Assembly: GCF_003991155.1 (NCBI RefSeq) | Contig: NZ_CP031295.1 | Length of the DNA stretch: 64,000 bases | Strand: one strand, 5' to 3' | DNA from: Escherichia coli | Lineage (GTDB): Bacteria > Pseudomonadota > Gammaproteobacteria > Enterobacterales > Enterobacteriaceae | Notes under the pieces: model-generated | The model's input: only the letters and a program-made list of their open reading frames with translations | What the model was told of the DNA's origin: nothing | The model's database searches: none | Shown: positions 42,740-63,649 of the stretch, one piece after another | How positions within the stretch are numbered: the first letter of the stretch is position 1 | Layout of the letters: each line of letters opens with the position of its first letter | Made by a program: the position numbers and the translations under genes

Positions 42740-44320
42740 ATACTCTTCGCCGAGCGAAAAGTTGGGGAACAGCACGGGCCGGCCGCGCAAGGCGTGCTGG
42801 CAGCCGTGCAGACCCTGCGTGAGATGAACGCCGACAACCTGCGCAAGGTGCCGGCCGATGCACCCACGGCCTTCATCAAGCCGCGCTGGAAGCCGCTGGT
42901 GATCACCCCGGAAGGCCTCGACCGGAAATTCTACGAAATCTGCGCCCTGTCCGAGCTGAAGAACGCCCTGCGCTCCGGCGACATCTGGGTCAAGGCTCGC
43001 GGCAGTTCCGCGACTTCGACGACTACCTGCTGCCGGCCGAGAAGTTCGCCGCACTCAAGCGCGAGCAGGCCTGCGGCGATCAACCCGAACAGCGACCAGT
43101 ACACGGAAGAGCGTTTGCAGCTGCTGGACGAGCAGTTGGCCACCGTCACCCGCGGCCAGGACGGCAAGCTGCCCGATGCCATCCTCACCGAGTCAGGGCT
43201 GAAAATCACCCCGCTGGATGCGTGCCGGATCGGCGCAGGCGCTGATCGACCAAACCAGCCAGGTTACTGCCGCGCATCAAGATCACCGAACTGCTGATGG
43301 ACGTGGACGACTGGACGGGCTTCAGCCGCCACTTCACCCACTTGAAGGACGGGCCGAGGCCAAAGACAGGACGTTGCTGCTGTCCGCAATCCTCGGTGAT
43401 GCGATCAGCCCGGGCTGACCAAGATGGCCGAGCCGAGCCCGGCCTGACTGCCAAGCTGTCGTCGCGGCAAGCACGGCACATCCGCGACGAAACCTATTCG
43501 GCGGCCTTGGCCGAGCTGGTCAACCACCAGTATCGCCACGCCTTTGCCGCCCACTGGGGCGACGGCGACCTCATCCTCCGATGGCCAGCGCTTCCGCGCG
43601 GGTGGCCGGGCGAGAGCACCGGCACGTCAACCCGAATACGGTAGCGAGCCGGGACGGCTGTTCTACCCATATCTCCGACCAGTACGCGCCGTTCAGCACC
43701 CGCGTGGTGAATGTCGGCGTCCGCGATTCCACCTATGTGCTCGACGGCCTGCTGTACCACGGTCCGACCTGCGGATCGAGGAGCACTACACCGACACGGC
43801 CGGCCCGCGATCACGTCTTTTGCCCTGATGCACCTGCTGGGCTTCCGCTTCGCGCCGCGCATCCGCGACCTCGGCGAAACCAAGCTGTACGTGCCGCAGG
43901 GCGTGCAAGCCTACCCGACGTTGCGCCCGCTGATCGGCGGCACCCTGAACATCAAGCACGTGCGTGCCCACTGGGACGACATCCTGCGCCTGGCCAGCTC
44001 GATCAAGCAGGGCACCGTCACCGCCTCGCTGATGCTGCGCAAGCTCGGCAGCTACCCGCCAGAACGGACTGGCCGTGGCCCTGCGCGAGCTGGGCGGATC
44101 GAGCACGCTGTTCATCTGGACTGGCTGCAAAGTGTTGAACTGCGCCGCCGCGTGCATGCCGGCCTGAACAAAGGTGAGGCGCGCAACTCGCTGGCGGGGG
44201 TGTTCTTCAACCGCCTTGGGGAAATCAGGGATCGGAGCTTCGAGCAGCAGCGCTACCGGGCCAGCGGCCTCAACCTGGTGACGGCGGCTATCGTGCTGTG
44301 GAACACGGTGTACCTGGAAC
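42740..44320 (+). pseudogene. tnpA: Second copy (copy B) of Tn1721-type tnpA 3' segment, heavily affected by indels/substitutions, 3'-truncated by IS26
   Basis: Same transposase sequence as 37543-39043 but extends further 5' and is broken into many frames; 5' boundary approximate. Confidence 0.65.
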
Positions 44321-53449: not shown

Positions 53450-55588
53450 ATGGACATTGAAATACGCCACTGCAATAACATCGTACGAGCACATATCACC
53501 CTCACTGCCGATAAACTGAACATTAAGTTTGCGCCAAATGGTACTGGAAAAAGTACGCTGTCACGGGCCATAAGCTGTGCGGCGCGGGACGACATTCAGG
53601 GACTACAGGCACTGATGCCCTTCCGGCTGCGCGGAGAAAACCCCGATAGCACCGGGCCCATTGTCATCGGTGCTGACGGGATTGGGGACGTGATGTGCTT
53701 CAACGAGGAGTACGTCAGTCAGTTTACGTTCCAACCGGACGAGCTCATCAGTGATAGCTTTAATATTCTTATCCGCAATCAAGCCCATGCGGAAAGAGAG
53801 CGTGAAATAGAAGAAATGACGCAAAAGATCCGGGCTGTTTTCACGGATCACACTGAGCTGAACTCTCTGATAGACCATCTACAGGAACTCAGTAATGCTT
53901 TCAGATCAACCAGTTCCGGGATTTCACGTTCTTCAACCGGCATGAGAGGTCTGTCAGGCGGAAATAAAATACACCACATTCCGGCTGGTCTTGAGAACTA
54001 TCAACCCTACATCCGCAGTGAACGCCGCGTGGAATGGATTGACTGGCAGACAAAGGGACTCGAGTTTTCGCCCCTTTCGGATGGCTGCTGTCCGTTCTGT
54101 ACCGGTGATATCACGGGAAAGGAAGCACAAATTCGCCAAGTCAGAGAGGAATACGATAAATCCACCATTAAAAACCTGACCGCTATCATCAGACTGGTGG
54201 AAAACCTCGGTAATTACCTGACGGAGAGCGCCAGAGAACGCCTTCTGGCCATTACTATGCTTCAGAACGGTCCGGAAGCCGAACATATCGAGTACCTAGT
54301 GGCGTTGAAACGCCAGACCGATACGCTGACAGAGAAACTCACTGCGCTGAGAGGCCTGAATGTTTTCAGCCTGCAGGAACAGCAGAACGTTCGGGAGGTG
54401 CTCACTGCCAGGTTGATTGACCTGCAGTTCTTCCCTGATCTGCAATCCGAACTCATGCAGGGGATCACCGACAGACTGAACGCGGCCCTTATGGACCTGA
54501 TAAACCTTGCCGGACCGCTGCAGGGAAAAATTAACCGGCACCGGGACAGCATGATCCGGCTGATCGCACAGCACAAAACAAACATCAATAATTTCCTCAC
54601 TTATGCAGGCTATAAATACAGGGTGGATATAGCCGGCGAGGGAGAGCAGAGAAAACTCAGGCTACGACACATAGATTTTGACGGGTACGTCAGCGGCGGT
54701 AGCCAGCATCTCAGCTATGGAGAACGGAACGCCTTTGCGATTGTGTTATTCATGTATGAATGCCTGTCAAAAAACCCGGGACTGATTATCCTTGATGATC
54801 CCATATCTTCTTTTGATAAAAACAAGAAGTTTGCCATTCTTGAAATGCTGTTCAGACGTGCAAGTGGTGAATGCCTGAAGAACCGGACTGTACTTATGCT
54901 GACGCATGACGTGGAGCCTGTGATTGACACGCTGAAGTCAGTCAGAAGGTTGTTCAGTAATCAGGTGACCGCCTCCTGCCTGCGCCTGTCTGCTGGAGTC
55001 ATAGAAGAATTACCTGTTAACGACGGCGATATCATGACATTCATGCAGATCTGCAAATCCATCACCGCGTCAGCAGACTGTGAGGAGATCATTAAGCTCA
55101 TCTATCTTCGTCGCTACTTTGAAATCGTTGACGAACGTGGTGATGCTTATCAGCTTCTATCCAATCTATTCCATCGACGCGTCGTCCCGCTGGATTATCG
55201 CGAGCCTGCCGCTGCGGGCTCGGGCTATCCCAAAATGGCTCCTGAGAAAATTCAGCAGGCCTTGCGGGATATCCGGGAGTATGTGGACAGTTTTGATTAC
55301 CCGCGACTTCAGGCTCTCGTCAGCAGCCCAGATGAAATAAAAAACCTGTACCGTCGCTGTCGTAACGGCTATGAAAAACTGCAGGTATTCCGTTTACTGG
55401 AACTGGATCAGGACCATCCGGTAATACGAAAATTCGTTAACGAAACGTACCACATTGAAAATGAGTTCATCTGTCAACTAGATCCGTCCAGATTCGATCT
55501 CATCCCGGAGTACGTGATTATGGAATGTGACAAGCTCATCGCCCTGCCACCGGCAGCAAACCAGAGCTCGGTTGCCCGTATCGCTTGA
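53450..55588 (+). CDS. Rad50/SMC-like ABC ATPase with CxxC hook and C-terminal extension (RloC/PrrC-like anticodon-nuclease candidate)
   Basis: Walker A APNGTGKST at N-terminus, CCPFC ~200 aa in, signature LSYGERNAF, Walker B LIILDDP, H-loop LMLTHD ~430-480, then ~230 aa C-terminal region. Confidence 0.5.
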   Translation: MDIEIRHCNNIVRAHITLTADKLNIKFAPNGTGKSTLSRAISCAARDDIQGLQALMPFRLRGENPDSTGPIVIGADGIGDVMCFNEEYVSQFTFQPDELISDSFNILIRNQAHAEREREIEEMTQKIRAVFTDHTELNSLIDHLQELSNAFRSTSSGISRSSTGMRGLSGGNKIHHIPAGLENYQPYIRSERRVEWIDWQTKGLEFSPLSDGCCPFCTGDITGKEAQIRQVREEYDKSTIKNLTAIIRLVENLGNYLTESARERLLAITMLQNGPEAEHIEYLVALKRQTDTLTEKLTALRGLNVFSLQEQQNVREVLTARLIDLQFFPDLQSELMQGITDRLNAALMDLINLAGPLQGKINRHRDSMIRLIAQHKTNINNFLTYAGYKYRVDIAGEGEQRKLRLRHIDFDGYVSGGSQHLSYGERNAFAIVLFMYECLSKNPGLIILDDPISSFDKNKKFAILEMLFRRASGECLKNRTVLMLTHDVEPVIDTLKSVRRLFSNQVTASCLRLSAGVIEELPVNDGDIMTFMQICKSITASADCEEIIKLIYLRRYFEIVDERGDAYQLLSNLFHRRVVPLDYREPAAAGSGYPKMAPEKIQQALRDIREYVDSFDYPRLQALVSSPDEIKNLYRRCRNGYEKLQVFRLLELDQDHPVIRKFVNETYHIENEFICQLDPSRFDLIPEYVIMECDKLIALPPAANQSSVARIA

Positions 55589-55749
55589 GCCACTGTTTTT
55601 GCCGCCGGAAGATAGGCTTTAGCTCCCTGATAGTCTGATCTTCGAAGATACCCTACAGTTTAGGACCGCTTACTGTAGATATCTGTTAAAACAGCCCGTA
55701 TACGGGCTGTTTCTTGGTGCCCTTATCTCCTGACTTTGAAAAGAGTGTC

Positions 55750-56166
55750 TTACTTCACCCAGTCTTCCAGCACCAGGTCAGGCACTCGCTCAAATTCTCT
55801 TGTATTATTCGTTACCAGTATCGCCCCGGCGGCGATGGCGTGCCCGGCAATCGCCGTGTCGTTCGGGCCGATCGGCGTCCCGGCCAGCCGCAGTGCCACT
55901 TTAATCTTCGTGGTGGCGTCTACTGCGGCGCGATCCCAGGGCAGGATGGCATCGAGGCGGGCGCAGAATTCATCGACCAGTTGGACGTGACGTGGTGAGG
56001 CCTTTGGGCCGGTAGCCCCGAAGCGCATTTCAGAGTAGGTGATGGCCGAGACCACTATACGGTGGCCGCGTAGCACCGCCTGCTCCAGACGCTTCAGGAC
56101 GGCTTCTGGCTGTTCACGCATGATGAACGAGCAGATACAGGTATCAAGCATATAAGTCTTGTTCAC
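55750..56166 (-). CDS. vapC: VapC/VagD PIN-domain toxin
   Basis: 138 aa MNKTYMLDTCICSFIMREQ...; overlaps antitoxin gene. Confidence 0.85.
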   Translation of the reverse strand: MNKTYMLDTCICSFIMREQPEAVLKRLEQAVLRGHRIVVSAITYSEMRFGATGPKASPRHVQLVDEFCARLDAILPWDRAAVDATTKIKVALRLAGTPIGPNDTAIAGHAIAAGAILVTNNTREFERVPDLVLEDWVK

Positions 56167-56393
56167 AGGTTAAATCGCCCTTCGTCGCTGACAACATCCT
56201 CGCGCTCCGCCATAAAATCTGGATCGGCTTTTTCGTACTCTAGGAATGATCCCCAGGTTGGCCGGACGGGGCGCAGGATGATGCTGTCCCCTTCCCGGAC
56301 GATCTCGAGCTCGCTCACCCCCTCAAAATCCAGATCACGAGGCAGACGGATGGCGCGGTTGTTGCCATTTTTGAATATCGATACGGTTCTCAT
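56163..56393 (-). CDS. vapB: VapB/VagC antitoxin
   Basis: 76-aa ORF upstream of PIN toxin with 4-nt overlap. Confidence 0.8.
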   Translation of the reverse strand: MRTVSIFKNGNNRAIRLPRDLDFEGVSELEIVREGDSIILRPVRPTWGSFLEYEKADPDFMAEREDVVSDEGRFNL

Positions 56394-56409
56394 GTTTTTT
56401 CTCTCCCGA

Positions 56410-56545
56410 GCATATGGATATGTGAAACATATCCGGAATATTCAAAGCACCGGGTGTGTGCATATGTTTAGTATAGGCAGATGTGTGGCATATGTATAGC
56501 GGTAGCATATGTAGATGCCAGGCATATGTTTAGCATATCTCTATT
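56410..56545 (+). repeat. Array of 5-6 direct repeats with CATATG core in the divergent vapB / 56689-gene promoter region
   Basis: gcatatgg, catatcc, gcatatgtttag, gcatatgtatag, gcatatgtagat, gcatatgtttag seen at ~17-28 bp spacing. Confidence 0.45.
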
Positions 56546-56688
56546 TCTTTCTTTTTTATCGGAGATCCGAAAAAAGGTTAAGTCTGATCTTAATGAAATT
56601 ACATGGAATTTGAGTGATATCCCTTACCCCACATCTCCAACGTGCTATCTATAAAGGTTGATACATCTCACTTAGTCCGGAGGTTGTT

Positions 56689-56979
56689 ATGAGCGTCAAA
56701 ATCACAGGTTTAGACAAAATGCAGAAACAGCTAAAAGAGGTTGAGAGAGCAACAGAGGCATTAAACGGAAGTTATGATGTCCACTTCGATGCTAACGATC
56801 CTGTCAGCATTGAGAACGCGATTCAGGAAGCCTATTCCATGGTGTACGAACGCGCTTCTGGTTATGCCACTAATCCGATGGTCAGCCCATTAATCGAACA
56901 CATGAAAGAAAATCTGCGCCAACAGATTCTGGACAGAGCAGAACAACAAAGACAGGAGAGCGGGCAGGATGGCAATTGA
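56689..56979 (+). CDS. Hypothetical small protein (96 aa), first gene of operon with TIR-like protein
   Basis: ORF with 11-nt overlap onto downstream gene start; no recognised motif. Confidence 0.35.
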   Translation: MSVKITGLDKMQKQLKEVERATEALNGSYDVHFDANDPVSIENAIQEAYSMVYERASGYATNPMVSPLIEHMKENLRQQILDRAEQQRQESGQDGN

Positions 56980-57868
56980 TATCTTTCAGTCACTTAAAAA
57001 TTGCGTATTCGACCTTCAGCGCGCTGACGTTCAGAACTATCAGCAACCTCTTAAGCAATTGGCCCGGCTCTTGAACTCAGAGAATCTGCAGTCAGTTAAT
57101 GCACATCTGACCCGCAATGTTGAACTTGATACCTTTCTGGCCAGGAGTGAAGATACTGAATCCAGCATGGCTGGTTCCGCTGTTCTACAGTGGCCTGATG
57201 AGCCCGCTGATATTTTGGGCCTGAAGTTGCTGCTGATCGAGAAAATGGCAGACGATAACAATTTTTCCTTTAATTTCTGTCATACATTTTTCTATGATCG
57301 AAACATTATTGAATCCATTCGAAAATTCACGTCGTCATTAGTTGCCCCGTTCGTGCGCGATTACCAGTTGTATGTGGAAAACCAACACGATCCTGAGCCT
57401 GCAGTGTTTCGGCCGGTTTCCCGAAAAATTTTTATTGTTCATGGCCATGATAATGATGCCCTTCAGTCTGTTGCCCGTTTTATATCCCGGATAGGTCTTG
57501 AGGAAATCATTCTTTCAGAACGTCCTGACGGCTCCAGGACGATTATCGAGAAATTTGAAGCAGAGTCAGGGGATGTCAGTTTTGCCATCGTGCTGATGAC
57601 GCCCGACGATAGCGGCAGTGCTCTGGCATCTGAAAGCACACGTCTCCGCGCACGCCAGAATGTCCTGTATGAGCTCGGATATTTCGCCGGGAAGCTTGGA
57701 CGCGGGAAAGTACTTGTACTCAGGAAGGGAGATATCGAAATCCCTTCAGATCTTGCCGGGGTTCTCTATACCGAGCTTGATGAGCATGGTGGATGGAAAC
57801 GCAAACTGCTGAGTGAGCTTGCGTATGCCGGTGTTCCTTTTGACAAGGATAAAGCATTAAGCGCCTGA
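56969..57868 (+). CDS. Protein with C-terminal TIR-like nucleotide-binding domain
   Basis: C-terminal ~140 aa with KIFIVHGHD ... FAIVLMTPDD ... NVLYELGYFAGKLGRGKV pattern resembling bacterial TIR-like domains; N-terminal ~150 aa unrecognised; RBS aggagag upstream. Confidence 0.5.
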   Translation: MAIDIFQSLKNCVFDLQRADVQNYQQPLKQLARLLNSENLQSVNAHLTRNVELDTFLARSEDTESSMAGSAVLQWPDEPADILGLKLLLIEKMADDNNFSFNFCHTFFYDRNIIESIRKFTSSLVAPFVRDYQLYVENQHDPEPAVFRPVSRKIFIVHGHDNDALQSVARFISRIGLEEIILSERPDGSRTIIEKFEAESGDVSFAIVLMTPDDSGSALASESTRLRARQNVLYELGYFAGKLGRGKVLVLRKGDIEIPSDLAGVLYTELDEHGGWKRKLLSELAYAGVPFDKDKALSA

Positions 57869-57885
57869 TCTCCTTCATTTAGTAA

Positions 57886-57915
57886 GAAAAAGGCCGCTAA
57901 GCGGCCTTAATTTTT
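57886..57915. terminator. Bidirectional rho-independent terminator between convergent genes
   Basis: aaaaaggccgc taa gcggccttaattttt: GC stem flanked by A-run and T-run. Confidence 0.6.
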
Positions 57916-57917
57916 GG

Positions 57918-60143
57918 TCAGTCGTCATTTTCCAGCGCTGTTTTGAGCGCTTCCTGCTCCGGAGTCAGCTCGTTGCCGGACAGCATAACCTTCAACTTCT
58001 CTTCGACTGCTGGCCAGTCATCAAAGAACGGACTGACCTGGTCACGCGCAATCCGGCGATATGCCCCTCGGTGGGAGCTGAAGACACTGGTCTGTAATCG
58101 TATCAACAGGTTAACAAGGCCTTCATCAGTGGTAGTAACTTCTCTGACCCATTGCTTCACGGTTTCACCTGAACTCATGTCTCTCCAGGCGTAGAGATAC
58201 CCGAGAAGAGACTTGCGCAGGAGAAGCTGTTGCTGAAGTTCTGGTTGATTCATACGTTCCGCAAACCTGTCACGCAACCGTTCCGTAATATCGCGACTGA
58301 AAAGAGCGTCTGAAGGCGAAGGTACTGCATTCTGAGCAAGTCCATGTTCCCAGATAAGATCCCGCATAAAATCGGCTATCCAGAACGGCGAAGCACCCGT
58401 AACGATCAGTTTTTCCATAAGCGTGATCGTTCTGGTCTCATCAATATCCTGCATATGCTTCAGCAGATGCCGTACAACCTCATTAATGGCCATTTCACGC
58501 AGGGAAAACCATGGGTTACGGATACTGAAGCGAGTGCTCACCTCATCGGTGTGATCGAAGAAAAAATGAACCAGTCCTGCGCACTCTTCGAAATTACGTT
58601 CTCTTATCAGGCCTGGAGTCAGTCTGCTCAGTATATGTTCAAACCAGGTTCCGGACAGACTGCCCACACTGTTGATTTTTGAGAGCAGCAATTCAGAAAG
58701 CTGCTGCTGTTTTTCCGATACGCCAGCCTGTTCAAAAAGCTGTCTGAAGAATTCAGGTGGCAGAACATTCTGTGGTGAGGAGAAGGCAAAATAATATCGC
58801 CAGTGCGTCAGGCTGCTGAGTCGTTTACCGGTCGTCTGGATATGACGAAAATCCTCACTGACGGGCTCAAAAAGATTCAGATATTCATCATTATGTCCAC
58901 TGATACCTGGGATCCAGTCTGCAAGTGTCAGAAACGAGTCTGCATTTGATGCCCTGAACGTCTTCATACATCTGATAAGCCCCTCCCGGAAGTCTGCTTT
59001 CTCTCCGTCAGAAAGCATACCCTGACCGGTTTCAATCACGGACCGTTCTGTCAGGTAATGCTCTGTCCAGTCATACAGAGCCGGGTTTGTCACCCGTATA
59101 AGCTGAAGCAGGCACAAATCAGGGAAATAAACAAAATCCCGCATCCCCGGATAAAGAAAAATCAGGGAATTAATGGCCTGATGGATTTCCCGTGGCGTCG
59201 AAAGTGCGGCACCATAGGTATCAGTCACCGCGATGAGATCCCTTACCATTCCAGAGTCTGGCGGTTGATTATTAATTTGCTGATATAGAGCCTCAGCCCG
59301 CTGGCGAAATTCATTACGTAAATCAAAGGCTTCAGGTCGGGGTAATTTAAAACTAAGCTGAATGATTTTCTGGAGATAACGGCTGCCATCTTCGATATTC
59401 AGCGCATGTTCAACGGCATGAGTGATAATCTGCCTGTCATAACAGAGAATATGGGTAAAGCGGGGCAGATCGGCTACTGCACGCACAAGCCTGAACACTT
59501 CCGCCACCTGGGATGGCTCCAGTCGGTCCAGATCATCCATGACAACAATGAACTTCAGATCCAGACTCACCAGTTGTCCTGCAATTTCAGCCCGAAGCTT
59601 TGTCGTGGTTTTCTGATCAACAGCCAGACGGCTGTCTGAAAATACCTTTATTCCGCCTGCTATCCAGTTAATAATGCTGGAAAACTGTCCGATATATTGA
59701 ACCAGTGGAAGGACGCGCGATGAAGTATCCTGAGCATACTCAATCACTTTTTGAGCTTCCGGTGACAACAGATATTTACGCCAGAGCTTTTTGAAGCCCT
59801 TCGGGGGATAGCGTATTTCCATTTCCTGCTGGATAACCGTGGCAACCGGAAGAAAGAGCGCTTCAACCGGACTGCCGCCACTCAGCCAGGGAGAAATATG
59901 CAGCACATGCGTGTGAGCATCTTTTTTCAGGGCAAGGTTTCTCAGGATCAGATTAAGGAGGCTTGTTTTACCCGATCCCCATGCACCTTCTATTCCGACA
60001 ACATTTGAAGCCTCCAGAGGAAGAGTAAGGATGGAACGGGATATATTTTCTGCGATATTACCGAAACCGTATCGATCCTCAGGTACATCTTCAACTGCCG
60101 CATCAAGCCCTTTCTGGTTCCACAGCTGCCTCAGTATCTTCAT
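57918..60143 (-). CDS. KAP-family P-loop NTPase
   Basis: 741 aa; Walker A GIEGAWGSGKTSLLNLI, Walker B FIVVMDDLDRLEP, large helical C-terminal region. Confidence 0.7.
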   Translation of the reverse strand: MKILRQLWNQKGLDAAVEDVPEDRYGFGNIAENISRSILTLPLEASNVVGIEGAWGSGKTSLLNLILRNLALKKDAHTHVLHISPWLSGGSPVEALFLPVATVIQQEMEIRYPPKGFKKLWRKYLLSPEAQKVIEYAQDTSSRVLPLVQYIGQFSSIINWIAGGIKVFSDSRLAVDQKTTTKLRAEIAGQLVSLDLKFIVVMDDLDRLEPSQVAEVFRLVRAVADLPRFTHILCYDRQIITHAVEHALNIEDGSRYLQKIIQLSFKLPRPEAFDLRNEFRQRAEALYQQINNQPPDSGMVRDLIAVTDTYGAALSTPREIHQAINSLIFLYPGMRDFVYFPDLCLLQLIRVTNPALYDWTEHYLTERSVIETGQGMLSDGEKADFREGLIRCMKTFRASNADSFLTLADWIPGISGHNDEYLNLFEPVSEDFRHIQTTGKRLSSLTHWRYYFAFSSPQNVLPPEFFRQLFEQAGVSEKQQQLSELLLSKINSVGSLSGTWFEHILSRLTPGLIRERNFEECAGLVHFFFDHTDEVSTRFSIRNPWFSLREMAINEVVRHLLKHMQDIDETRTITLMEKLIVTGASPFWIADFMRDLIWEHGLAQNAVPSPSDALFSRDITERLRDRFAERMNQPELQQQLLLRKSLLGYLYAWRDMSSGETVKQWVREVTTTDEGLVNLLIRLQTSVFSSHRGAYRRIARDQVSPFFDDWPAVEEKLKVMLSGNELTPEQEALKTALENDD

Positions 60144-60144
60144 A

Positions 60145-61236
60145 TTACAGATCTCCGTACAGGCAGCGCAGCCCGGTCAGGGCCTCCGCCAGCGGGCCTT
60201 CTTGACACCGCGTGGCGAGCTCCCGGACCAGCGTCTCAAAGGCCTCCGCCGGCATAAAAATCCGCAGGCCGTCTATCCCGAAGAAGCCCTCCGGCGTGAC
60301 GTTTCCGGGCGGGGAGAACATCACTCGCTCCCCCTGGTGACCGTGCGTCAGGGCTTCCGGATGCCGGGCATACAGCGTGAACAGGCCCAGCAGTTCGGAT
60401 AACGCTTCCCAGCCGTACGGCACCACGAAGTCCTGGCCGGTGATCAGCAGGTGCAGACGGGGTGTGGTGTACCAGGCCCCCGGGCGTTCTCCGGGGTGCT
60501 GGCCGTCAACGCGGATCTCCAGGCGCAGCGTGCCGGCCTCAATGGTTTCCGTGACGGCAGAAATAACCGGGCGCAGCTCCTGTGCCAGCGTTCTTGCCTG
60601 TTCTGTGTTCCAGTCCAGGCCGCGCAGCATCAACGGGAAAACAGCTTTCAGCCGCGGCAGGGTGAAGATTTCTGCCAGCACCGCGTCCGGCACCTCCGCC
60701 AGGCCAAAACAGTCGCTCTCGAGCGGACGCAGGAGGTGTTCGGCATACATCTGATCCACCACGGGGCGCAGCGCTGCCCGGAAGGCTTCAAACTCTTCCG
60801 TCCAGTTTTTCCCGGCCAGGCGGAAAATCCCCTTCAGGTAGTGACCGTCCACAGGGCGATCGTGCTCCACCTGCCAGGCCAGCAGGTTGCCAGTGATGTC
60901 CAGCAGCGTGTCCAGGGCCGGGAGTGTGGCCAGCCTATTATGCCCGCGCAGGAAGGCCTCCCTGACGTGAACCAGGACAAAGCGCAGTTCGTCGCGGGAG
61001 AGCGCTGACGTGCCGAAGGTCTGGCCCAGAATGATATGCCGGTACAGCTGCCGGACCGTGGCCTCCGGATCGGCAATGAGCTGAAAATACCCGTCACCGG
61101 GCGCGACCGTTTTCAGGCCGTCATCGAGGAAGCGTTCGGCTAGGGCGTTGACCGAAGTATTTTCCCGACCGGCACGCGTTTTCAGCGCCTCGATAAGTTT
61201 TTTGTGAAAACGCAGGTTAAGCTGGCTTAGCATCAT
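60145..61236 (-). CDS. Protein with N-terminal ribbon-helix-helix (RHH) motif and large unknown C-terminal domain
   Basis: 363 aa; N-terminal LNLRFHKKLIEALKTRAGRENTSVNALAERFL resembles Arc/MetJ/CopG RHH; stop is 1 nt from KAP NTPase start. Confidence 0.5.
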   Translation of the reverse strand: MMLSQLNLRFHKKLIEALKTRAGRENTSVNALAERFLDDGLKTVAPGDGYFQLIADPEATVRQLYRHIILGQTFGTSALSRDELRFVLVHVREAFLRGHNRLATLPALDTLLDITGNLLAWQVEHDRPVDGHYLKGIFRLAGKNWTEEFEAFRAALRPVVDQMYAEHLLRPLESDCFGLAEVPDAVLAEIFTLPRLKAVFPLMLRGLDWNTEQARTLAQELRPVISAVTETIEAGTLRLEIRVDGQHPGERPGAWYTTPRLHLLITGQDFVVPYGWEALSELLGLFTLYARHPEALTHGHQGERVMFSPPGNVTPEGFFGIDGLRIFMPAEAFETLVRELATRCQEGPLAEALTGLRCLYGDL

Positions 61237-61777
61237 CGATCCTTTAATGTTTGTTTTGTTCTTAATGCTAACCTAGCATTTTATTATTAGCTATTAATCA
61301 GTTTTTTAGTTTTTGAAAATTGTGATGCTTCTAAAATTGAGGATTTTAATGCTACAACAATGCCTGCCTCTTCTTATTTCTCCGGAGATCCGAAAACCCC
61401 AGGTTACGGATCTTCCTCTCCCCCCACACAACGCCACCTCCTGTCAGCACAACATGTGGTATCTCATTCAGCTGCTCATGACACTATATGTTGTGTCATC
61501 TCCCTGACCTGTGATGCGCCGCGCAGGGGCGGAAAACAGCGATATGATTATTTTCTCAGCGTGGTACACTTCCGGAAAGTTGTGATATTCCGGAAAGTCG
61601 GATCTGACGGAAACGGCTCTCCGGTAATTTAACTGCGTTTCTATATGGCTACTTATTATTTCAGTATGTGAAATTCATTTTTTGTGAAAGTCACTGTTCT
61701 CAACAGAGTGGCACTCATCTGGCGATGATTGAGGTGTGGTAAAATTGCACGGCTAACTATTCAACTGAGGAAAGGAC

Positions 61778-62128
61778 ATGTTTACTGCATTCAATGAGAG
61801 AAATGATTTCAGTTATGCTTTTGAAAAAATCCGTAATGCGATTTCCGCGCCAGGAGAAAATAATCTTTATGCTGCAACAGAATTAGGTCTTGGCATTCTG
61901 CTCCGTAAATACGAGCAGTTTCGCCAGGAACTGGATGCGGCCGGTGAGCTGGGAAACTGGGAATATGATCTCGATACCTACAATCACTGTATTGCGGTGC
62001 TGCAACGTTACTTCACCGGCAATCCATCCGGGCTCACAGAACGTGATGCCCGGATTTACAGCCATTACCTGCAGACTGAGCACAAAGGCTTTGTGAAGCT
62101 GGCTGAAGAACTGGCTGCCGACCGCTGA
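61778..62128 (+). CDS. Hypothetical protein (116 aa)
   Basis: ORF with upstream promoter-like AT-rich region; no recognised motif. Confidence 0.3.
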   Translation: MFTAFNERNDFSYAFEKIRNAISAPGENNLYAATELGLGILLRKYEQFRQELDAAGELGNWEYDLDTYNHCIAVLQRYFTGNPSGLTERDARIYSHYLQTEHKGFVKLAEELAADR

Positions 62129-62171
62129 ATACATACAGAAGGCGGGATTTCTCAACAATAAAGGAATAAAC

Positions 62172-62861
62172 ATGGCTGACTGGTTTATTGCGACCGAAGG
62201 CGTGAAGGTGGTGAAGGACAGCGCCAGTCTGGGGCCGCAGATAATTACAGCTGTATCGACCATCGCATCTGCTGTCGGAGCGGTGTTCCTTACTCACCAC
62301 TTCACACTCAGACGTGAGGAGAGAACTGCAGCAGCGAAGCTGGCCAGCGAGCGTCTTTACATTAGTACAGAGCTGGTTTTTTTACTTGAGCGATTTGCGC
62401 AGCGTTGCGCTCCAGCAGCAACAGCAACTGTGGAGCACGATCAGGATGGCAGAGGAGAAGCTGAGTTCTTATTACCGGAAATCGATTATTCCCCGGTATC
62501 TGGTAACTGGCGCTCCCTTCCTTCTGGCCTGATGTATAGGCTCAGCGAACTCTCTGTTCTCAGCTACGAAGCTGTCGTGTGTGTAGATAATGTGTTTGTT
62601 GAAGATACTCCTTATGGTGGAGCGGGTGAATATAGTTTGCATAAAAACGCAGCTATGTTGGGAGTAAAAGCACTGCGGTTATCACGAGAACTGAGAATGT
62701 TATGTGGCCTCCCTCTGCACGGCCTTTCCGATACACTATCGCCAACGAGGTTGGTATTGTTGAAAGCCAGAGGTAAAACACTCCAAAAGGAGTACGAAAT
62801 GGTAAAGAAGTCTAAAAAGACCGAGCAAGAGATTGAGGATTTCATAAAGGGGACATCATGA
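62172..62861 (+). CDS. Hypothetical protein with N-terminal TM helix (229 aa)
   Basis: Hydrophobic segment QIITAVSTIASAVGAVFL; stop overlaps resD start. Confidence 0.3.
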   Translation: MADWFIATEGVKVVKDSASLGPQIITAVSTIASAVGAVFLTHHFTLRREERTAAAKLASERLYISTELVFLLERFAQRCAPAATATVEHDQDGRGEAEFLLPEIDYSPVSGNWRSLPSGLMYRLSELSVLSYEAVVCVDNVFVEDTPYGGAGEYSLHKNAAMLGVKALRLSRELRMLCGLPLHGLSDTLSPTRLVLLKARGKTLQKEYEMVKKSKKTEQEIEDFIKGTS

Positions 62862-63649
62862 GTGGCCCACAATTGCTTTCCCTGCCAGGTTCTTTTTTAA
62901 CGCCTCCGGCAACATTACCTGTTGCCATTGATTACCCGGCTGCGCTGGCACTACGTCAGATGGCACTTGTGCAGGACGAATTACCAAAATATCTGTTGGC
63001 GCCGGAGATCAGCGCCCTGCTCCACTATGTACCGGATCTGCACCGCAAAATGTTGCTGGCCACCCTGTGGAACACGGGCGCACGTATAAACGAAGCGCTG
63101 GCGCTGACGCGGGGAGATTTTTCTCTGGCGCCGCCATATCCGTTCGTACAGCTGGCCACGCTCAAACAACGGACTGAAAAAGCGACCAGAACGGCAGGCC
63201 GTGTCCCTGCTGGCAGTCAGGTGCATCGCCTGGTTCCCCTGTCCGATACACAATACGTCAGCCAACTGCAGATGATGGTGGCCACGCTGAAAATCCCACT
63301 GGAGCGCAGAAACAAACGAACCGGAAGAATGGAGAAGGCGCGCATCTGGGGAATCACCGACCGCACAGTTCGCACCTGGCTGAATGAAGCTGTAGAGGCC
63401 GCTGCGGCCGACGGCGTGACGTTCTCTGTTCCGGTTACCCCACATACTTTCCGCCATTCCTACGCGATGCATATGCTGTATGCTGGTATTCCGCTGAAGG
63501 TGCTGCAGAGCCTGATGGGGCACAAGTCGATTAGTTCGACAGAGGTGTACACGAAGGTGTTTGCGCTGGATGTGGCTGCACGGCACCGGGTGCAGTTTTC
63601 GATGCCTGAGTCCGATGCTGTCACAATGCTGAAAAACAGACACGCATAA
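62858..63649 (+). CDS. resD: ResD-like tyrosine site-specific recombinase (plasmid multimer resolvase)
   Basis: 263 aa with catalytic-domain HTFRHSYAMHMLYAGIPLKVLQSLMGHKSISSTEVYTKV (R..H..Y). Confidence 0.8.
   Translation: MSGPQLLSLPGSFLTPPATLPVAIDYPAALALRQMALVQDELPKYLLAPEISALLHYVPDLHRKMLLATLWNTGARINEALALTRGDFSLAPPYPFVQLATLKQRTEKATRTAGRVPAGSQVHRLVPLSDTQYVSQLQMMVATLKIPLERRNKRTGRMEKARIWGITDRTVRTWLNEAVEAAAADGVTFSVPVTPHTFRHSYAMHMLYAGIPLKVLQSLMGHKSISSTEVYTKVFALDVAARHRVQFSMPESDAVTMLKNRHA

Follow-up and report, generated by a model that had tools for sequence, protein, structure and literature searches.

The stretch of Escherichia coli DNA considered here, 64,000 nucleotides of contig NZ_CP031295.1 (the window), holds an array of short direct repeats with the core CATATG in the intergenic region that separates a vapBC toxin-antitoxin operon of the vagCD type from a divergently oriented operon encoding a TIR-like protein. 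This arrangement raises the question of which neighbor the array serves. A sequence-only reading of the window had offered several answers, namely that the repeats are operator sites of VapB/VapC, that they bind another regulator controlling the TIR-like operon, or that they resemble an iteron array. We regard it as highly probable that the array is a multisite autoregulatory operator of vapBC with the promoter built into it. This reading is carried by the lattice on which the repeats are set, their linkage to one subfamily of VapB, the conservation of the promoter hexamers among them, and the homology of VapB to structures solved in complex with DNA.

A Lattice of Palindromic Hexamers

The array of CATATG direct repeats is real. 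The heptamer GCATATG occurs five times exactly, always on the + strand (starts at 56410, 56460, 56488, 56505, and 56522), within a span of 119 bp, and weaker copies fall on the same lattice (table 1). The whole window contains 11 matches on both strands against 9.97 expected, 5 of them within these 119 bp, so the motif is clustered and not generally overrepresented; the Poisson chance of four further same-strand copies within 119 bp of a given one is about 3e-9. Successive hexamers of the main array are separated by steps of 11, 6, 11, 6, 11, 6, 11, and 11 bp, which gives a 17-bp period, and the leader hexamers (56411, 56417, and 56428) obey the 6/11 lattice as well. Given this lattice, strong sites stand 11 or 17 bp apart, and the spacing of 17–28 bp described earlier is accurate, 28 being the sum of 17 and 11. 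Autocorrelation of 56455–56545 places the maxima of self-similarity at lags of 11, 17, 28, and 34, which were reached in 0 of 2000 shuffles, and spacings of 6, 11, and 17 bp also predominate across homologous loci.

The consensus of the array unit is G-CATATG-Y-A-k-A-K-g-nnnn, followed by GCAT at +17. Information in the unit logo is high over G-CATATG, lower from +7 to +12, and approximately zero from +13 to +16; the (G)CATATG(Y) units are thus palindromic half-sites of a size suited to an antitoxin dimer. The inverted repeat in the predicted leader (table 1) recurs in variants L001–L005 (E. coli and Salmonella) and in the Salmonella Dublin virulence plasmid. Rather than filling the 295-bp intergenic region, as had been proposed, the repeats occupy its vapB-proximal 45% (56410–56539); the formerly assigned end at 56573 runs through a pyrimidine-rich tract into the left arm of a recombinase core. 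Tandem Repeats Finder (minimum score 30) did not score the array in the window because its units are too degenerate, and on the longer array of the Salmonella Dublin plasmid it reported a period of 17 with 4.6 copies. A scan of 55700–57000 against Rfam, with matches considered at E <= 1, found none, and the region is thus not explained by any known RNA family.

The array segment is AT-richer than the window (40% vs. 52% G+C), and its tandem direct repeats of about 17 bp recall the iterons of a plasmid replication origin or incompatibility determinant, in which tandem direct repeats of approximately 17–22 bp bind many copies of one protein, as the units here would also do. This part of the resemblance stands, although repeat length is not diagnostic alone. 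The remainder of the comparison fails: no rep gene is linked to the array in any context fetched, nor does it have the context of an origin; it is found on IncI1, IncF, IncR, and IncFIB plasmids alike, with versions of two or three copies upstream of vapB on chromosomes; and its units have palindromic cores and overlap a promoter. We consider an iteron function to be hardly credible.

Ownership of the Array

Two sets of comparisons bear on whether the array belongs to vapBC or to the operon on its other side. A 951-bp query consisting of vapC, vapB, and the intergenic region matches 4788 plasmid records; of 5426 E. coli genomes, 1587 contain a match. Many plasmids are approximately 99.6% identical to it over vapBC and the array and then diverge at query positions 830–838 (window 56579–56587), inside the recombinase core, past which they carry other genes, such as an AAA ATPase in L002. 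Variants of vapBC that are 81–88% identical are encoded on plasmids of E. coli, Klebsiella, Enterobacter, and Salmonella, and although their upstream regions align poorly, these are still built of the same units (CATATG, TATATG, GATATG, and CAGATG) in varying copy number. The motif is present in every plasmid variant examined.

Conversely, the TIR-like operon occurs without vapBC on F, and diverged homologs (about 81% and 96% identical), likewise without vapBC, are found on Klebsiella virulence plasmids and an Enterobacter plasmid. These homologs retain the recombinase core along with roughly 100 bp of upstream sequence of their own, and there is not a single CATATG in the 360–420 bp upstream of them in F (L092), Klebsiella (L010 and L011), or Enterobacter (L012). 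The array thus does not co-occur with the TIR-like operon. Since it is kept with vapBC beside other genes while the homologs of the TIR-like operon are without CATATG, the array belongs to vapBC and not to the TIR-like operon. The proposal that the repeats bind a regulator of that operon, in a control region shared by the two, draws on the position of the array between two divergent operons. The absence of the repeats upstream of the same operon in F and its diverged homologs, the many other genes beside which vapBC and the array are found, and the lack of a recognizable DNA-binding domain in the 96-aa product of the first gene of the operon (Pfam scan) make this proposal highly improbable. 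Judged from these comparisons, what was described as a divergent promoter is two separate modules side by side that are joined at the recombination core.

A scan of contigs from one genome per species for relatives of VapB yielded 76 loci at 51–97% identity. After the removal of duplicates and degraded copies, 63 upstream regions were analyzed, 26 with the core sequence AGATCCG within 300 bp and 37 without a core. (A protein search with VapB returned relatives that, among the 120 matches listed, are all at least 86% identical.) In the 26 core-bearing loci AGATCCG always lies beyond the array. Over the 150 bp that precede vapB in the 37 core-less loci, no hexamer is more enriched than CATATG, which occurs 56 times against 0.95 expected and is present at 35 of the loci; the next most enriched hexamers, ATATGC, GCATAT, and ATATGT, are one-base extensions of it. 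The core-less loci include large chromosomal contigs (Leclercia, Serratia, and Pectobacterium) as well as distant taxa (Shewanella, Azoarcus, Spongiibacter, and Oceanospirillaceae), in which the element is reduced to two CATATG hexamers 11–12 bp apart, and chromosomal vapB genes carry two or three copies. The presence of CATATG at 35 of 37 core-less loci indicates that the motif follows the VapB subfamily and not the recombination site.

The number of 17-bp units varies between near-identical vapBC loci (L004 vs. L005, and the upstream regions of L016–L057), and between 118 and 239 bp separate the start codon from the core, depending on the locus. This variation indicates that whole 17-bp units have apparently been gained and lost frequently. 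Among host regulators, the boxes of TorR, PhoB, ArcA, OmpR, Fur, and MetJ were considered and set aside, as none of them is known to resemble GCATATGY repeated every 17 bp and it is vapB, not a host regulon, that the motif accompanies.

A Predicted Promoter within the Repeats

A promoter scan of 56300–56750 identified TATACA-N17-TATACT as the sole promoter-like site, oriented toward vapBC. The same combination is the top-scoring promoter in 39 of the 63 nonredundant homologous loci, and the spacer sequences differ among them. Transcription is predicted to start near 56463, within the CATATG at 56461–56466. The hexamers in the window cover the −35 element, the spacer, and the predicted start, with three further units upstream and the inverted repeat in the leader. 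In distant homologs the promoter is TTGACA-N17-TATGCT and two CATATG hexamers 11–12 bp apart lie over the −10 element and the start region; in L071, L073, and L076 the first CATATGCT contains the −10 element, and the start region falls under the second CATATG. By prediction and by conservation, then, the repeats overlap the promoter of the operon that encodes VapB. An alternative promoter with TTGAAT (56446..56441) and a −10 element in the leader was rejected, since the candidate −10 elements were poor by eye and the arrangement, in contrast to TATACA-N17-TATACT, is not conserved in Klebsiella-type variants.

VapB and the Recognition of DNA

The antitoxin has a DNA-binding domain of the AbrB/MazE fold, and its sequence matches the VapB chains of the structures 6IFM, 5L6M, and 3ZVK in the PDB, of which 5L6M (PMC5389673) and 3ZVK (PMC3326315) are DNA-bound complexes. 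The operator of Caulobacter VapBC1 has two palindromic half-sites approximately 10 nt apart over the −10 element and the start, each bound by an AbrB dimer, and one VapB4C4 octamer occupies both (PMC5389673). In Rickettsia VapBC2, each VapB2 dimer reads a TA-rich near-palindrome of about 10 bp, the centers being about 14 bp apart in a more open complex (PMC3326315). The 11–12 bp spacing of the minimal CATATG operators matches the half-site spacing reported for Caulobacter (PMC5389673). Ser11, Asn13, and Arg21 of Caulobacter VapB1 contact DNA (PMC5389673), and by a hand count on the alignment the residues N9, N11, and R19 of the window's VapB align with them. Enterobacterial homologs that carry the motif share the N-terminal stretch FKNGNNRAIRLPRD virtually without change, and more distant motif-bearing VapB proteins show small changes in it, for example, R13Q, I15V, and R19K.

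Loss of the gene and loss of the motif coincide at four loci (L070, L081, L082, and L084), where vapB is degraded (truncated, frameshifted, or without a start codon) and no CATATG is found upstream. A further locus, L086, from a metagenome-assembled genome of the Gammaproteobacteria (vapB at 2501), encodes a 51%-identical VapB in which the DNA-contacting loop reads KNGNSQ for KNGNNR; no CATATG is present upstream of it, and in its place there is a GTAC-centered (TGTACA-type) palindrome, ATGTACttagtgtGTACAT. This is a single example in which protein and operator may have covaried. Taken comparatively, the proposal that the repeats are VapB/VapC operator sites is supported: the motif tracks the VapB subfamily in chromosomes and unrelated plasmids, overlaps a conserved promoter, and would fit binding of the AbrB type.

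An Adjoining Recombination Core

Beyond the array, with 23 bp between its last hexamer and the site, lies a recombination core of the rfsF type, a feature absent from the sequence-only reading. In 20 of the 26 core-bearing loci the last hexamer starts 28–30 bp before AGATCCG. The 11-6-11 layout resembles that of a tyrosine-recombinase site. The left arm recurs in F, upstream of the TIR-like operon there, and a comparable pyrimidine tract is found to the left of the core in F, in pSLT, and at the second core of the window. This second core, rfsF proper, is a perfect version of the site, and its R64 counterpart starts at nt 43620, which is the coordinate of rfsF in PMC8004404; F has a core that differs in one spacer base, between pifC and ccdA, and pSLT has a variant upstream of ccdA. 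The genes at the position of the window's ResD/Rsd-like recombinase carry the annotation site-specific integrase in R64, F, and the Salmonella Dublin plasmid, and rsdB "resolvase" in pSLT. Each of the window's cores has a GATC, the target of Dam methylation, in both arms (56564–56567 and 56586–56589; 61387–61390 and 61408–61411).

The two cores, in direct orientation, bracket a 4.8-kb module that comprises the 96-aa gene, the TIR gene, pifA, and pifC, and F shows the same bracketing with a degenerate left core (L092 2591–2618; L013 3923–3950). This arrangement suggests that the module was inserted by ResD recombination at rfsF, and it might be excisable in the same way. It is known that rfsF is an exchange point for plasmid segments (PMC9412624, PMC8004404) and that vagCD stands beside rfsF-resD in IncR backbones (PMC9412624). 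To the right of rfsF (61414–63649) the window has open reading frames of 116 and 229 aa before the integrase, and R64 (L001 11676–12951) has a 137-aa gene directly before it. Given this difference the window is R64-like only to the left of rfsF, which fits the swapping of rfsF segments in IncI1 plasmids (PMC8004404).

Between vapB and ccdA-rsd, the Salmonella Dublin virulence plasmid carries AGATCCG-N14-CGGATCT preceded by eight 17-bp units, of which one is incomplete, and the array of the window is a shorter version of that array. Krause and Guiney reportedly described in 1991 the multimer resolution site crs of the Salmonella Dublin plasmid pSDL2 as eight incomplete 17-bp direct repeats, after which comes a segment with many indirect repeats; the site reportedly had bidirectional promoter activity, and its repeats are reported to have been treated as part of the recombination site. 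The units of the Salmonella Dublin plasmid fit this description and are probably the crs repeats. The vagCD genes were described a year after the 1991 paper on crs.

Such a history, together with the fact that the array abuts an rfsF-type core, raises the possibility that the repeats are purely an accessory sequence of rfsF/crs, bound by the recombinase or by a host factor and unrelated to VapB. However, no CATATG array is present at rfsF of F, R64, or pSLT or at the 61386 site of the window, and it follows that rfsF does not need the array; nor does the motif occur at the cores upstream of the TIR-operon homologs. The rfsF sites of F and R64 share with the 28-bp hybrid core the left arm and the pyrimidine tract, and modules are exchanged there (PMC9412624, PMC8004404), yet rfsF itself is without CATATG repeats, so that the array is its neighbor and not one of its components. 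Since, in addition, the motif is found upstream of vapB where no core exists and the vapBC promoter hexamers lie inside the units, this purely accessory reading is strongly disfavored, and we consider it very unlikely.

Neighboring Genes

From 52 to 61 kb the window runs collinear with plasmid R64 (IncI1), to which it is almost identical; the 951-bp query matches R64 at 100% identity. Beyond the TIR gene lie a convergent KAP-family NTPase and a 363-aa gene. The R64 counterparts of the NTPase and the TIR-like protein have the same protein accessions as the P-loop NTPase and TIR-like protein of F, and the 363-aa gene matches the annotated PifC of F by position and size. We take the KAP NTPase to be PifA of the pif operon of F. 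The 96-aa gene, the TIR gene, the gene for the KAP NTPase PifA, and the downstream gene (PifC in F) travel together (window 56689–61236; L010–L013), and this set of four is found on F, R64-like, Klebsiella virulence, and Enterobacter plasmids. The TIR pair, which is convergent with pifA, may belong to the same phage-exclusion unit. There is no CATATG just upstream of pifC (61237–61385), and a PifC operator was accordingly discarded as an explanation of the repeats, being a different kind of element. On the other side of vapBC, a gene for a 712-aa AAA_13/ABC-like ATPase (53450–55588) is transcribed toward vapC at about 160 bp from the vapC stop codon, and it is retained beside vapC in plasmids in which the other flank of vapBC is different (L002 201–2339).

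Table 1. Coordinates in the window of the array, the predicted control elements, the recombination sites, and the genes discussed.
Feature	Position	Strand	Remarks
vapC, VagD-type PIN-domain toxin, 138 aa	55750..56166	-	Pfam PIN E = 2.8e-15; R64 and many further plasmids annotate it as a VapC family toxin
vapB, VagC-type antitoxin, AbrB/MazE-fold DNA-binding N-terminus, 76 aa	56163..56393	-	Pfam PF04014 E = 3.2e-9
Predicted promoter-proximal operator	56410..56434	.	GCATATG, then perfect inverted repeat GGATATGT-N3-ACATATCC (56416-56434), in the predicted 5' leader
Main array	56460..56539	.	Hexamer starts 56461, 56472, 56478, 56489, 56495, 56506, 56512, 56523, 56534
Weaker copies	56416; 56427; 56477; 56511; 56533		GGATATG; ACATATC; GCAGATG; GTAGATG; GCATATC, respectively
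Predicted vapBC promoter	56470..56498	-	-35 TATACA (56498..56493), 17-nt spacer, -10 TATACT (56475..56470)
Pyrimidine-rich tract CTATTTCTTTCTTTTTTATCGG	56541..56562	.	Between array and recombinase core
Hybrid rfsF-type core AGATCCGAAAA-AAGGTT-AAGTCTGATCT	56563..56590	+	11-6-11 layout; degenerate right arm; outside the repeat array
Neighboring operon: 96-aa open reading frame and 299-aa CAP12/Pycsar-type TIR-domain protein	56689..57868	+	Pfam PF10137 E = 3.7e-37
rfsF proper AGATCCGAAAACCCCAGGTTACGGATCT	61386..61413	+	Direct orientation with the core at 56563; 2 matches (palindromic, one site on both strands) vs. 0.03 expected
ResD/Rsd-like tyrosine recombinase, 263 aa	62858..63649	+	Open reading frame; presumed rfsF enzyme, by gene position

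A Proposed Mechanism and Its Difficulties

If the array is an operator of vapBC, each (G)CATATG(Y) palindrome would be bound by one AbrB-fold VapB dimer in a widened major groove, and by analogy with the solved relatives VapC dimers would bridge VapB dimers to form VapB4C4 octamers, each of which would clamp two neighboring sites 11 bp or possibly 17 bp apart. Several octamers would coat the array and the leader repeat, covering the −35 and −10 elements, the start, and 56416–56434, so that RNA polymerase would be blocked. We infer that vapBC would be repressed as long as the antitoxin is plentiful and released upon degradation of VapB or an excess of VapC, that is, by conditional cooperativity as in the vapBC operon of Salmonella. 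The minimal, ancestral form of the operator would have had two or three sites over the promoter, and the plasmid versions would have expanded from it by duplication of 17-bp units up to the edge of the rfsF site.

Several points weigh against this reading. A literature search found no published binding, footprint, or transcript-start data, nor a study of the VagC operator. A dimer footprint of about 10 bp does not allow sites 6 bp apart to be occupied together, and a spacing of 17 bp would turn neighboring strong sites to almost opposite sides of the helix, which would suit an open complex like that of Rickettsia. There are at least five units against two operators in characterized vapBC loci, and the units upstream of the −35 element have no obvious role in simple promoter occlusion. 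Moreover, arrays beside an rfsF core are about twice as long as those without one (mean 4.65 vs. 2.16 YATATG per 200 bp), which autoregulation alone does not explain; shared descent of one plasmid lineage may explain both the long arrays and their fixed distance from the core. Finally, many of the 63 loci are related, so that the counts overstate the number of independent observations, an effect that the diversity of the spacers and the distant taxa lessen but do not wholly remove.

The length of the arrays next to the core and the fixed distance between the two also bear on a dual role, in which the array is an operator of VapBC and at the same time an architectural or regulatory accessory for ResD/Rsd recombination at the adjacent rfsF site. 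A run of VapB4C4 complexes near rfsF might then act as an accessory nucleoprotein structure that biases recombination toward resolution, gates the capture of cargo, or makes toxin-antitoxin expression responsive to recombination and so to the multimer state of the plasmid. The eight units directly before the core in the Salmonella Dublin plasmid and the retention of vagCD next to rfsF-resD in IncR backbones (PMC9412624) are consistent with this idea. Against it, the rfsF sites of F, R64, and pSLT manage without an array, L035 has a long array and no core, and the fixed distance and the longer arrays could reflect the shared descent already mentioned. We consider such a dual role, whether as an architectural aid to the recombinase or as a link to the multimer state, to be unlikely, if less so than a purely accessory function.

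Comparison with Known Systems

The autoregulatory operator that we favor has a close parallel in the vapBC operon of Salmonella enterica LT2, whose AbrB-type VapB acts at two operators, vapO1 and vapO2, over its own −10 and −35 elements, with VapB4C4 as the proposed binding species and control by the toxin:antitoxin ratio through conditional cooperativity (Winther and Gerdes 2012; PMC3378870); the same species would bind here. The two differ in that LT2 has two inverted-repeat operators, whereas the array has at least nine hexamers on an 11/6-bp lattice in addition to the leader inverted repeat. The recognition sequence is also different, and the LT2 VapB is a distant relative (38.7 bits). Caulobacter crescentus VapBC1 (5L6M; PMC5389673) and Rickettsia felis VapBC2 (3ZVK; PMC3326315) have a homologous fold that reads one TA-rich palindrome per dimer. 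Their operators consist of one pair of half-sites 10–14 bp apart over the −10 element and the start, the layout seen in the two-CATATG operators of L066, L071, L076, and L079, whereas in the plasmid array such pairs recur many times and 17-bp spacings occur as well.

Significance

The element is most likely of a conventional type, an autoregulatory operator, as far as can be judged from its sequence, and what sets it apart is its unusually high copy number and its position against a known recombination hotspot. As the 4788 plasmid records suggest, vapBC of the vagCD type ranks with the most common addiction modules of IncF, IncR, and IncI plasmids and of the resistance and virulence plasmids of Klebsiella, and its control region has apparently not been dissected before. 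The comparison yields a recognition motif, G-CATATG-Y on an 11/6-bp lattice, together with a promoter and a minimal operator of two sites, which may be of use in annotation and in plasmid-curing strategies that rely on expression of the antitoxin. If the crs repeats are these units, the 17-bp repeats had been seen before and ascribed to the recombination site; here they are assigned to the vapBC promoter. This promoter is the unchanging left border of a hotspot of recombination at which defense and other cargo modules are exchanged. ArgR and PepA are accessory factors of recombination at cer, and if the repeats were also to serve as an accessory structure at rfsF, a toxin-antitoxin complex would act as a recombination accessory factor in the same manner.

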